A stretch of DNA of 64,000 bases from Octopus vulgaris (Eukaryota): assembly GCA_951406725.2 (NCBI GenBank), contig OX597833.1, positions 8,742,001 to 8,806,000 of the forward strand, read 5' to 3'. Positions 31,387 to 64,000 of this stretch are shown here, piece by piece (positions within the stretch are counted from its first letter, which is position 1; each line of letters opens with the position of its first letter). Position numbers and translations under genes: made by a program. The notes under the pieces were generated by a model. It was not told the DNA's origin and did not search any database. It saw only the letters and a list, made by a program, of their open reading frames with translations.

Positions 31387-31501
31387 GTCTAAACTTCCTA
31401 TATTATTATTTATATATTTCGTTATAGTTTTAAGTATCGCTGCTTGTCGGGTGGAGACCGAGGTATTTATTTCACTGACAGAAACTAAGAAGGATAAAAA
31501 A

Positions 31502-31606
31502 GAAAGAGAAAGAAACGTTTGAACTGTTTCCCGTTTCATTTCCTTATTTCCTCGCTGTTAACCTGATTCCATCAAAGTCTTTCTTCGCACTTGTCCGCTT
31601 TATAAA
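31502..31606 (+). promoter_or_regulatory. Putative promoter with IRF/ISRE-like and ETS-IRF composite motifs plus TATA box (repeated at 46258-46362 and 60139-60243)
   Basis: GAAAGAGAAA (GAAAnnGAAA) at 31502-31511; gtttcatttcc, rc GGAAATGAAAC (EICE-type), at 31533-31543; tttcccgtttc; TATAAA at 31601-31606, 30 nt before the ATG. Confidence 0.5.
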
Positions 31607-31635
31607 TTCTTTCCTGACACAACTTAAGCGACGAG

Positions 31636-31677
31636 ATGGAAACAGACTTCCTTCGACAAATGGTCAACTTGACACTC
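31636..31677 (+). CDS. TPR-TIR gene copy 1, coding exon 1 (METDFLRQMVNLTL)
   Basis: gagATGG start context, 14 codons, consensus GTAAGT donor at phase 0 matching the phase-0 acceptor at 40049/40050; retained in all three units. Confidence 0.75.
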
Positions 31678-58800: not shown

Positions 58801-60101
58801 TGTGTGTGAGTGTGTGTGGTTTTGGTTTATGTGTGTGTGTGTGTGTGTGTGAGAGTGGACTTTGTGTCAATGTCGTAGGAAGAATTTATGGTAAGAATAT
58901 TAGGTCGGAGTTTTTTTGTGTGTGTGTCCCTTCACATGCGCTGAGGAGAATGATCAGTAGAAAGGTGTTTACCTGGTAGTTTGAAGTATGTGTGTGTCTG
59001 TGTGTGTGTGTATATGTATATGTTGTGTGTGTGTTTTGTATGCTTGTTTATGTGTATGCATTGGGTTGTGTGTGGAGTTGTCTGAAGCAAATGTGCATTA
59101 CTCTGTGTGTGTGTGTGTGTGTGTGCATGTATATATAATTGTGTGCGTGTATGTATGAGTGTGTATGGCAGGTATGTGTGGGTTCATTTGTCTATGTGTA
59201 TGTGCGCGTGGGTGTATGTGTGTGTGTATTTTTTCGTGTGTGTGTGTATGTATGTGTGCGTGTATACAGAAATAAAATAAAAAATAAATTATAATAAGGT
59301 TGATAGGGGATAAAGAAGAAGAAGTTGATACGATTTAAAGTGGAGCAATTAAAAACAAAAATGAAAGAAAGTTGCTTTGTTAGGTCTGTCGTTCTTCGTT
59401 ATTTCTGTAATAAAAATAGTTTTGAATGATTTCTGTGCGAGTGTATGAAATGGGTGCGTGTGTATGTGTGTGAGAGAGGAAGAGCGAGAATTTCATTAAA
59501 AACTGCCCATTTTCCTGCAAGTTATAATGATTCATGTGAATTTTCTGAAATTCCCGGAAAATGTTTTTTCACAAAAAACTCTGACACAATCGGAATCTAC
59601 TTCACCAGAAAATGTGTTTGTAGAAAATTTCGTTAAAAAACAAAAATACGCATTAAGTGGGCGGCTCTAACTTATGCTTGTATACCCTGGTAACGGGAGG
59701 CCCCGAAACGGCCCTCATTCTCTCCTGTTCACCTCCAGAAACGTGACAGTATCTGGGGTGCAGGGCTCTGAACTGCTAGCACTTGCACTGGCAAGGTGTT
59801 TGCAAGCACAGAAATAAATGAATGCCCGCTTTCTACGTCAGTCAGTGAAGGCAGTCACTGACGTAGATTTTAAAATACGTATCTTAGTAAATTCACTCAA
59901 TACAATAAGGTTGCTTGGCCGCGTCCAGTAAATAGGATAAAGGTTGTCAGGCGTTAAAAGTGAAACTACATTTAAAATTGTTTTGACGACTTGTAACTTC
60001 TTTCGAGGAGTTTCCAGCTTTGAAAACACTTCAACACATTCCAGCTGTGAAGAATCTACACAAAACTTAGACTAAACTTCTTCTGTCGTCTAATTTGTAG
60101 A

Positions 60102-63100
60102 ATTTATTTCACTGACAGAAACTAAGAAGGATAAAAAAGAAAGAGAAAGAAACGTTTGAACTGTTTCCCGTTTCATTTCCTTATTTCCTCGCTGTTAACC
60201 TGATTCCATCAAAGTCTTTCTTCGCACTTGTCCGCTTTATAAATTCTTTCCTGACACAACTTAAGCGACGAGATGGAAACAGAATTCCTTCGACAAATGG
60301 TCAACTTGACACTCGTAAGTATAGAATCAATCAATCAATCAATCAATTTATATCGGTTATTGTTCACAACTTGTTTACAACTTGACCCGGAAAAGAAAAT
60401 GAGAAAAAAATACTGGAATGGGTGTAAAAAAAATGTGTAGGAAACGAATATGCGGGCAAAGTAACGGGAAGGTGGGGAGAGGAACTCGGAAAAATTCACA
60501 AGATCCGAGTTTCTCCTTTTTAACTTTAAGGAAAATTGGGGTTTTTTTCTATGAAATCTCTCTCTCTCTCTAAAGCTGAAGTTGTTTGTGTGTGGCAGGT
60601 TTGGTAGCCTTCAACTAACACTATCTCCTCTGAGACCAAAATTGAGAGTATGATAGAAGAAGGCTTGCTCTTCCATCCGTAGAAGAAAAAATTCAAATCG
60701 GACCATGTTAACACCTAAAATTATTTACACCAAAATGGTACTTTTTTTCTATGAAAATCCCTATTTTTTACGATTTTTTGACTGCTGTGTCACCATTTTT
60801 CGGTGTATTTCAACCAGAAAAATGTTCACTCAAAGAGAATAACAAGCTAAATTTTTACTTTTCAAAAGTTCTAATTCTAAAGGGTCGAAACAAACCCGAG
60901 CAACGCCGGGCGATACTGCTAGTATATTATATAAATACCTTTCAAACTGCCTACATTACGTTACCGATTGTTCTTGTGTGAGAAAGGCCATCATAAACGG
61001 CGATGGAAGAAAACAGCATGCCGAGTGTCCCTTGAAAGTGAAGCGAGGAAGTCAAGGAACTGGATGGAATGCGGACATAACAGAGAACGACTGTCCGAGG
61101 AAGCGAGTGAATTCAGCCAAATCACAGACTGAGTAAAACTGTAAACTGACAGTGTCGCTTGAGCCCACCTTGAAGTCCAGAAATGCATGTTTTAACTAAA
61201 GCTAATACAGACATGCTACAGGTGTGAAACTGTATGTTGACGGGAAAATGACGGGTCCTGTGAATGTTCCGAAACTCCTCTCTCTAACCCCTCGGAAATG
61301 TTTTCAAACAAATCTATTACACACACTTAATCTTCAGGATTATTTGGTGAAAGTTTAGTTAAAAAGTATGCACTTTTCTGGAAGTTACGAGGCAACAAAA
61401 TCGGTGGGGTATTAAACTGTAGTTATGCCTCTGACAATAAAAGTTACCGTAAACGGATTAACGTTATCTTTGTTACATTTTCCAAGAATTAACGGATTGG
61501 GTTAGTTTTTAGGATTTGACCCGGGTTAATGTTTACACCTAACCACCTTTTCATATTCGTTTCCTACACTTTTTTTGACGCCCATTTCACTATTTTTTGT
61601 CTGATTTTCGTTTCCGGGTCAAGTTGTATAAATTTTCTTTTTATATGTTTGTTTCCTTTTACTCAATGTTAAAACAACGGCTAAAAACTTTCTGAAGCAG
61701 CAACCCCGACTAATTTCATCCACGAACCACCACTGGTGCCCGGTCACCAAAACAAACAAAAAAAAAACCCAGTCTAATAGGTGTACAAAAAACTTGTAGG
61801 AAACAAATTATATGGAAACAATAATTTGTGCAAATGAATAGGGTGTGGGTGGTGGTAGGGCTTTCGGAAAATTCACACAATCCGATTTTTCCCCTCTTAA
61901 CTTTCAGGGAAACATTTTCCCCCGCAGATTTCTTTATAATCGTAATCTATGCCATTTGAAAGGTGCTTCTGTAAGATTTCATCGAAAGATATCCATATTC
62001 CGCCCATTGGATGCCTGCTGAGCCCAGGGTCAGCTTCTTTACAATCCTCTGTTGTTCAGCAGCCACTCTCCACACTGCATCTTCTTAACCCACCTTGGGC
62101 CCAACATCCATTCTCAGCTTGCCAACCTGCTGGTATGTATGTGTTTATGCATATGCAAATCCTCCACTCTTAACCCATTAATGCCCACCACCAACATTTT
62201 TGAATTCTTTACTTTGTTATGCTCACATGAATCTAGCACAATGTATAAATGATCAAAGCATGGCTTTGATGCCAAATATGGTCAGAAAAATTATTATTCT
62301 TTATCTTCAGAAAGTTTTTTGATGCCCAAATTTATGAAATTATTTTAAATGAATATTTTCATTAAAAAAAAAAGGGCATTAATGGATTTTAAAAAGGTAC
62401 AGATAGGGTGTATGGAAAGACGAGTATATATAATATATATATATATATATATATATATATATATATATATATATATATATATATATATATATATATATAT
62501 ATATATATATATATGTATATATATATATGTAGGTACTGTAAATTTAGGGTGAATACTTGATAAGTGTAAGCACCTGTATATGCCAGATAGTGGCAGAGGT
62601 GTATGTATGTATGTGGATATATATATATATATATATATATATATATATATATATATATATATATATATAATACTACAAAATTACAAAATGGAGAAACATA
62701 CTTAAATCAATCAAACATCAACCATCAGATGATACCCAATCAATATTTTATTACACCATTACATAACAGTAAAGGCATTATACAAAATATATTGTAAATA
62801 TAATTAGACAAGGAAATAGAAATATAAAATATAAAATATAATATGTAATTATATCATATCATGGTGGGTTGAATTTTCAACCCCTATCTCATTTTATATA
62901 TATATATATATATATATATATATATATATATATATATATATATATATATATATATATATATATATATATATATATATATATATATATATATATCATCATC
63001 ATCATCGTTTAACGTCCGTTCTCCATGCTAGCATGGGTTGGACGGTTCGACCAGAGATCTGGGAAGCCGGAAGGCTGCACCAGGCTCCAGTCTGATCTGG

Positions 63101-64000
63101 CAGTGTTTCTACAGCTGAATGCCCGTCCTAACGCCAACCACTCTGTGAGTGTAGTGGGTGCTTTTTACGTGCCACCTGCATGTAAATTTTATATATATAT
63201 ATATCGCCATGATTGACCGCTAACTCCACAAGGTTTTTTTATTCTCTCTGTTTATTTCCTTGTGTTCCTTTCTGTTGAAGAGCGTAGGTTCGAAACGTAA
63301 AAGACTTTCTCATCTTCCTGAGTGTCAAACTAATACACCTGCTTGTTGTTTATACACCTGTTTTCGTCTTGTTTTTCTTTAAATTTCAACTATATATATA
63401 TATGTATGTATGTAGGGAAGGGGCTCCAAAAGGGGTTCCAGGGTGTAGCATACCTGTCTTCCTAAGCTAGCTTTCCACCTCATTTCTAACAAATCATGGT
63501 GGAGCCCTTGGTCTTGGGACCGCTGATGCCTAGAAACTAAGGTTGGGAGTAAGCATGCTCCCTGTAGAAAATACACAACCTAACGAGCCTCATGATAGCA
63601 AAAAGGAATGGGCACCAGGCAGCCCAAAGGTTGGGGTGGGCTGCATCTGCCAACGTCAGTTGCTATGGCATTGAGGTAGATCCAGCCACCCCCGTTAATG
63701 GGGACAAAACCCAGATTTAAAACACTGAATGATGATGATGATGATATATATACAGACACACACACACACACACTCACACACACACACACTCACAAGTAAT
63801 CATTTGAACTTTGTGTATATGGCTACTATTATAACAATTCAAGCACTTTCACTGTTCTGGCTACCTGATGTCATCCACTGATTTGATATCACTTTTACTG
63901 GATCTTGTAAATGTGTGGAAATGAGATGATCAGAAGAAGGCATTTTGGAGGGCGGCGGTGGGGGGGGGGGTTAACATAACACAGATTTATTTAAAGAGAG
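60102..64000 (+). repeat. Tandem segmental duplication unit 3 (partial)
   Basis: Near-identical to 31465-34607 plus 36429-37215. Confidence 0.92.
60273..60314 (+). CDS. TPR-TIR gene copy 3, exon 1 (METEFLRQMVNLTL); exon 2 expected beyond the window
   Basis: Paralog of 31636-31677 with intact ATG and donor. Confidence 0.7.

Follow-up and report, generated by a model that had tools for sequence, protein, structure and literature searches.

The IFITs are antiviral RNA-binding proteins of vertebrates. The sections of one comparative study that deal with their distribution report them from jawed vertebrates alone, with none in lancelet, sea squirt or acorn worm (PMC3688568), and the relevant portion of a review of animal antiviral evolution names IFIT in a reference only (PMC6723221). 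Proteins that join a TIR domain to tetratricopeptide repeats (TPRs) make up a class, TIR-TPR, in the TIR sections of an oyster survey (PMC4346834) and an Aplysia survey (PMC9334734), and part of a placozoan survey describes ecTIR-DC proteins as widespread in invertebrates (PMC6321704). Our literature search, which covered neither subscription papers nor supplements, so that a prior listing is possible, found no paper on an IFIT-fold TIR family. Here we analyzed a stretch of 64,000 nucleotides from Octopus vulgaris (assembly GCA_951406725.2, contig OX597833.1, positions 8,742,001 to 8,806,000 of the forward strand; hereafter the window), for which an earlier note, made from the DNA letters, had proposed a tandem array of genes for IFIT-like TPR proteins fused to a TIR domain. 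We find that this octopus gene family, for which an IFIT fold and a TIR fold are predicted, is real, expressed and expanding.

The first gene of the cluster, copy 1, has two coding exons (Table 1) whose spliced product counts 738 residues; residue numbers are given from the start of exon 2, those of the spliced protein being higher by 14. The NCBI model P0002 opens with the same first exon. In all three runs that we classed as RNA-like (three studies), contigs start exactly at the exon-2 acceptor, and the loose contig end at the acceptor is exon-1 sequence; a fourth, DNA-sized run reads on into the copy-1 intron. The class RNA-like is a guessed run type, as zero runs are on record as RNA, and the contigs, in which variants are dropped, reveal the splice junction only and not level, strand or start. 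Since the spliced junction is present in contigs, the copy-1 gene is expressed, and the transcribed, spliced locus envisaged before is borne out in 3/3 RNA-like runs. The same contigs carry 213-214 loose letters before the acceptor and reach 31465, giving a leader of at least ~171 bases 5' of the copy-1 ATG, and position 31465 is the exact point at which copy 1 and copies 2-5 diverge. In one low-depth contig, exon 2 is instead joined to an alternative upstream exon, which is likely non-coding because it contains in-frame stops.

The N-terminal part of exon 2 was predicted to adopt the fold of vertebrate IFIT1/IFIT5 over ~400-440 residues at an identity of 15-17%, with the IFIT subdomain fold rather than a regular TPR superhelix. 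Structural comparison placed IFITs ahead of all other TPRs by 5-9 Z units, and the IFIT match is in register from the N-terminal non-repeat segment onward. The family profile scored 110 bits for IFIT vs 62 for generic TPRs, hhalign to IFIT returned 99.9%, and a family search ranked IFITs within the top 150 of 1.84 billion proteins. All of the first three sequence blocks that had been quoted as collinear with IFIT1 are present in a phmmer alignment to that protein (E 1.2e-4), and the register of the fourth (IQYGKF with FHYGRF) follows from later alignments. In place of the ~570-residue TPR-rich region described earlier, the IFIT-like part spans ~490-530 residues and is followed by a helical linker. 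Language-model scores were 0.97 for IFIT clusters and 0.96 for TTC22 clusters, the one measure in which the suggested TTC22 resemblance appears. Thus, affinity to IFIT beyond generic TPRs was recovered by the family profile, the language-model scores and structure, and not by a narrow reverse profile of bird IFIT5s; because the latter fails to separate the family from generic TPRs, the case for kinship rests on the family profile and structure. The same failure, a single-sequence E-value of only 1.2e-4 and the low identity are what one would expect if the likeness were convergence among TPR solenoids inflated by model bias. We hold this to be very improbable given the lead in Z units over all other TPRs, the in-register match from a segment that is not a repeat, the conserved pocket residues described below and the rank of IFITs in the family search. 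With high confidence, the octopus protein is true kin to IFIT, and its family is a relative of the IFITs rather than a member of the vertebrate IFIT family as defined. Among named proteins, the nearest belong to Octopus bimaculoides (89%, entered in UniRef as 'TIR domain-containing') and Octopus vulgaris (92%, called 'IFIT1B-like' at NCBI); automated annotation has touched the IFIT half and the TIR half separately. A word-index protein search returned 2 relatives only and missed the family even with a profile.

At the C-terminus, a Pfam scan gave no TIR match for the window protein, and a Pfam TIR at E 1e-5 was present in none of the 51 top relatives scanned (out of 150 matches); two amphioxus relatives and one sea-urchin relative did pass Pfam TIR. 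The family profile matches the TIR of IL-1RAcP (E 1.2e-7), the predicted C-terminal model has the five-stranded beta-alpha TIR fold, and the top 14 rows of a structure search with this model all contain TIR. Profile and predicted structure together uphold the ~130-residue TIR-like C-terminus postulated in the earlier note. A Ribosomal_L4 match on the same segment was rejected, being below cut-off and contradicted by the model. The TIR is kept in 89/110 relatives, from molluscs to amphioxus, and shows the lowest variation of any part of the protein across the five copies of the cluster (3 variants in 134 codons). The column of the catalytic glutamate, which is kept in >90% of NADase TIR groups (PMC7075850), is occupied, by alignment, by Glu in the window protein and by Gln in the octopus paralogue nearest to it, and only 28/109 TIRs of the family have Glu there. 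As the family does not keep this position, a scaffold role for the TIR is likelier than NAD+ cleavage; a ligand-switched NADase of the kind of SARM1 or bacterial TIR sensors, which the Glu of the window protein might recall, seems to us very improbable.

A search of the 2.8-Gb genome at reduced sensitivity gave 33 matches corresponding to about 22 loci in five clusters, all on the chromosome of the window; 8 loci have a C-terminal TIR domain and about 14 are short and lack it. A first exon of 17 codons with a phase-0 donor was present in 9 of the 11 paralogues whose upstream DNA was examined, and was not found in the stretch examined upstream of L044 and L047. The short paralogues (L011-L027, at 57.84-58.01, 60.18-60.21 and 61.64-61.67 Mb) encode products of ~510 residues, the size of a vertebrate IFIT, and nest within the TIR-bearing ones (100/99) in a tree that is unrooted, built from 40 hand-picked rows cut to the N-terminal part and unresolved at its deep nodes. 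The same stop codon ends all 12 short loci examined (of about 14), and in 11 of these it is followed by a decayed linker and TIR sequence whose stops and frameshifts are common to the loci; the single copy that was aligned is 69% identical in DNA to the intact paralogue. Sequence comparison thus indicates loss of the TIR in one octopus sub-clade and expansion of that sub-clade afterwards, and the decayed TIR behind the stop offers a direct view of how a sensor-signaller can become an IFIT-sized protein. Of the proposed 'one-protein sensor-signaller', the architecture survives in the 8 loci that keep the TIR and was lost in the rest.

We then mapped IFIT5/IFIT1 pocket residues by alignment onto the family (n = 102 non-octopus relatives), with residue letters following the PDB chain wherever the review has a misprint and residue roles from the pertinent parts of PMC13197388 and PMC3950709. 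The position of K150 is Arg in 85 relatives, R186 is Arg in 92, H287 is His in 91, R260 is Arg in 83, K257 is Lys or Arg in 75, and W146 is Tyr or Phe in 89. Among the five copies there are 56 nucleotide variants in codons 141-400 and 3 in the TIR, and 5/15 contact positions vary vs 31/385 others (p 0.007). The nonsynonymous/synonymous ratio among 7 intact short paralogues reaches 2.64 in codons 221-300 (bootstrap 1.28-10.4), compared with 0.77-0.81 in the codons outside 221-400. Such variation hints at an arms race at the tunnel, short of proof.

Upstream of the genes, an IRF/ISRE-type (interferon-stimulated response element) motif lies before the copy-1 ATG (Table 1), and its pattern occurs twice in 54 kb of background. 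Three distant TIR-bearing paralogues have the same IRF-type pattern 222-226 bases before the ATG and also a canonical ISRE near -370, while none of the 3 TIR-less paralogues scanned has a strict ISRE match within 1 kb. The octopus genome has three IRF loci, and GAS-like and kappaB-like motifs occur at 45666-45679 inside the inter-copy segment. Because the contigs reach 31465, the copy-1 motif is probably transcribed, within the leader, and is probably not a classical proximal promoter; of the promoter that had been claimed, the ISRE-like and TATA-like motifs exist, both of them probably transcribed, and the classical proximal placement is doubtful.

The account we favor, at a little under even confidence, is that the octopus IFIT-fold/TIR protein is a nucleic-acid-end sensor with a scaffold TIR output; that its ligand is a nucleic acid is in our judgment evenly balanced, and the full sensor-signaller mechanism is the more tentative part (these and the assessments of the rivals overlap in part). 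A cytosolic sensor would grip a phosphorylated nucleic-acid end in the IFIT-fold tunnel, the clamp would close on the ligand, and oligomerisation with TIR-TIR assembly could then recruit a TIR adaptor with IRF/NF-kB output; the gene itself may be induced through IRF, and the TIR-less paralogues might resemble vertebrate IFITs in serving as binders or decoys that have no output.

Several points weigh against this account. RNA binding, induction and signalling of the octopus protein are proposals drawn from sequence and model. About 14/22 loci lack the TIR, and the TIR that is kept has no Pfam match and is equally near adaptor and enzyme TIRs. With a profile of 120 bird IFIT5s, the window protein scores 29.8 bits (best stretch), less than certain generic TPRs (best 55.9). 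The training set of AlphaFold included IFIT structures, towards which its model may lean. The five window copies have a nonsynonymous/synonymous ratio below 1 (0.52 overall, 0.62 in the tunnel), so that positive selection is not shown; moreover, the tested regions and contact positions were picked after viewing the data and the copies are mosaic, which makes the p values soft. Within the pocket, Glu replaces IFIT5 R253 in the window protein and in 37/102 relatives, the family having mostly Glu or another residue there; E33 and Q41 of IFIT are not kept; the R260 position is Leu in copy 1, and the K150 position is Thr in the three short paralogues that were aligned; and residues 1-480 have an isoelectric point (pI) of 6.25 vs 8.54 for bird IFIT5. 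The acidic pI, the change of R253 to Glu and the loss of E33/Q41 would suit an IFIT-related solenoid that, like most TPRs, binds a protein or peptide ligand, in a TIR-bearing protein sensor or adaptor perhaps nearer TTC22, as would the near-equal TTC22 score and the position of vertebrate IFITs, which occupy a separate long branch together with a hemichordate protein that lacks a TIR. We consider this unlikely, as the family-wide arginines and histidine at triphosphate/RNA positions are hard to explain without a phosphorylated ligand. Only slightly less unlikely is a role as IFIT-like effector, in which the protein would sequester viral proteins or the ends of foreign RNA and the TIR would be accessory or an inhibitory decoy that damps TLR/MyD88 signalling. 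The growth of the TIR-less sub-clade to about 14 loci, a TIR too divergent for Pfam and IRF-type motifs suggestive of an induced effector speak for it; the low variation of the TIR among the five copies and its retention in 89/110 relatives speak for a working TIR instead, although conservation shows function and not its direction.

We also asked how far the family extends. Among 30 matches looked up, those with a species name belong to octopus, gastropods, bivalves, two hemichordates, amphioxus, lampreys, sea urchins and a frog, and a language-model search returned mollusc and echinoderm clusters of ~750 residues, with a Pfam TIR in ~90% of the echinoderm cluster members. The family is not peculiar to the octopus; it spans molluscs and deuterostomes. 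In the tree, a separate clade (100/100) unites the 6 vertebrate IFIT rows and leaves the octopus rows outside, a TIR-less Saccoglossus protein joins them (93/84), amphioxus, lamprey and hemichordate proteins form a clade (96/95), and a clade of 22 rows (92/90) has 14 named members that are all molluscs; the octopus clade sits on a long branch and its place is uncertain. This Saccoglossus kowalevskii protein (P0098/P0291) reaches 104 bits against the bird IFIT5 profile, despite the reported absence of IFITs from acorn worm. The lamprey relatives P0101 and P0300-P0306 are 839 residues long and fall together with a TIR-bearing protein of amphioxus (100/100). Judged by eye, the C-terminus of these lamprey proteins resembles a very degenerate TIR, yet it passed neither the iterated profile nor Pfam. 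Lytechinus P0132 and P0292-P0294 carry a canonical Pfam TIR that includes the catalytic glutamate motif, and their place in the tree is unsure. By our analysis, molluscs, acorn worms, amphioxus and lamprey have IFIT-fold proteins, the majority of which include a TIR, and because of these relatives IFITs are likely far older than jawed vertebrates. It is conceivable, though rather unlikely in our estimate, that an old bilaterian IFIT-fold/TIR receptor, cytosolic, directed at foreign RNA ends and signalling directly by way of its TIR, gave rise to the jawed-vertebrate IFITs as TIR-less descendants and that the octopus is an independent replay of this loss, the steps of which may have been a premature stop, a decayed TIR and then expansion under diversifying selection; the unrooted 40-row tree does not tell whether loss of the TIR gave rise to the vertebrate IFITs. 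Should the pocket bind RNA ends, invertebrates would possess a class of cytosolic RNA receptor that has gone unrecognised, and a binding assay together with a reporter could put the origin of IFITs to the test.

Comparison of the window with the neighboring 60 kb revealed five copies in the cluster, more than the at least three noticed before, with large exons 97.6-97.9% identical to copy 1; the window itself contains two large exons and the first exon of a third copy. Five copies here and five clusters on one chromosome agree with the expansion by tandem duplication that had been put forward. Copies 1 and 5 are intact. Intactness within the window thus holds for copy 1, and copy 2 is frameshifted in the assembly, which the earlier note did not mention: a 1-base deletion at codon 490, common to copies 2 and 4, would as assembled cut off the TIR of copy 2, and copy 3 has three frameshifting indels. 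Because the indels of copies 2-4 all lie within short runs and 4/4 sequencing runs have one extra base at the copy-2 site, leaving the frame open, the copy-2 deletion is likely an assembly error; real truncated isoforms for copies 2-4 are disfavored on the same grounds, short of proof.

The inter-copy segment (3.9 kb) is absent before copy 1 and after copy 5, a distribution that simple tandem duplication does not explain, and it ends in a possible splice acceptor at 46219/46220. A 560-base intron piece (32329-32886; 50375-50935) is inverted in copies 2 and 4 vs copies 1, 3 and 5. Intronic tandem arrays occur at 38316-38722, 48907-49194 and 34584-35076 (units of 121, 48 and about 61/123 bases), the 121-base array being longer in copy 5. 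Besides the LINE-type (long interspersed nuclear element) reverse-transcriptase fragment in the copy-1 intron, others lie at 21850-22800 and 24287-24691; two of the three are 88% alike. Upstream of the cluster are exons of a BEACH-domain gene (about 4100-4250; Pfam Beach E 2.1e-6), with possible further exons near 5900 and 17080, neither of which has a Pfam match.

Table 1. Features of the octopus window; positions are counted from its first base.
Feature	Position	Strand	Remarks
5' leader common to all five copies	31465..31635	+	homology of copy 1 with copies 2-5 starts at 31465
IRF/ISRE-type motif	31533..31543	-	103 bases before copy-1 ATG
Copy 1 coding exon 1	31636..31677	+	14 codons, GT donor, phase 0
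LINE-type reverse-transcriptase fragment, passenger in copy-1 intron	35124..36476	-	Pfam RVT_1 E 5.8e-17
Alternative upstream exon in copy-1 intron, likely non-coding	37606..37935	+	run X7 record 20, depth 2.6; 5' limit approximate
Copy 1 coding exon 2	40050..42224	+	724 aa plus stop, intact
Predicted IFIT-fold helical solenoid	40050..41513	+	exon-2 residues 1-488
Divergent TIR domain	41829..42203	+	exon-2 residues 594-718
Inter-copy segment	42355..46220	+	present before copies 2-5 only
Copy 2 coding exon 1	46392..46433	+	
Copy 2 coding exon 2	52604..54777	+	1-base deletion in G run near 54069-54073
Copy 3 coding exon 1	60273..60314	+	exon 2 lies 1.7 kb past window end

Finally, we compared the octopus protein with known systems. 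Oyster TIR-STING (PDB 6wt7) and the adaptor TIRs of MyD88/TRIF go with another sensor fold and ligand, and a shared fusion origin is unsupported. TTC22 is alike by language-model score, and its clusters list no TIR family. The invertebrate TIR-TPR and ecTIR-DC classes have TIR and TPR in one protein and a proposed immune role, without an IFIT link in the parts of those surveys that name them; here they are compared by class name only. Most mollusc members of the octopus family lack a Pfam TIR, so such surveys would miss them. The closest likeness is to vertebrate IFIT1/IFIT5 (PDB 5udi, 6c6k, 4hor, 3zgq), with which the octopus protein shares its predicted fold and, in its family, largely conserved equivalents of K150, R186, H287, K257 and R260; it differs in its low identity, the replaced R253, E33 and Q41, the acidic pI and a longer insertion after the helix at residue 297. 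Like vertebrate IFIT genes, the octopus genes stand in tandem clusters, consist of a short first coding exon and one large exon, and have IRF-type motifs near the start, in this cluster probably within the leader. The layout alone is not proof of descent, because intron position and phase differ: the octopus first exon encodes 14-17 residues before a phase-0 intron, in contrast to ATG plus 2 bases in mammals, as given in the gene-structure portion of PMC3688568. Vertebrate IFITs consist of TPRs only and are matched in this respect by the short octopus paralogues, whereas the protein of the window carries in addition a C-terminal helical linker and a TIR domain.

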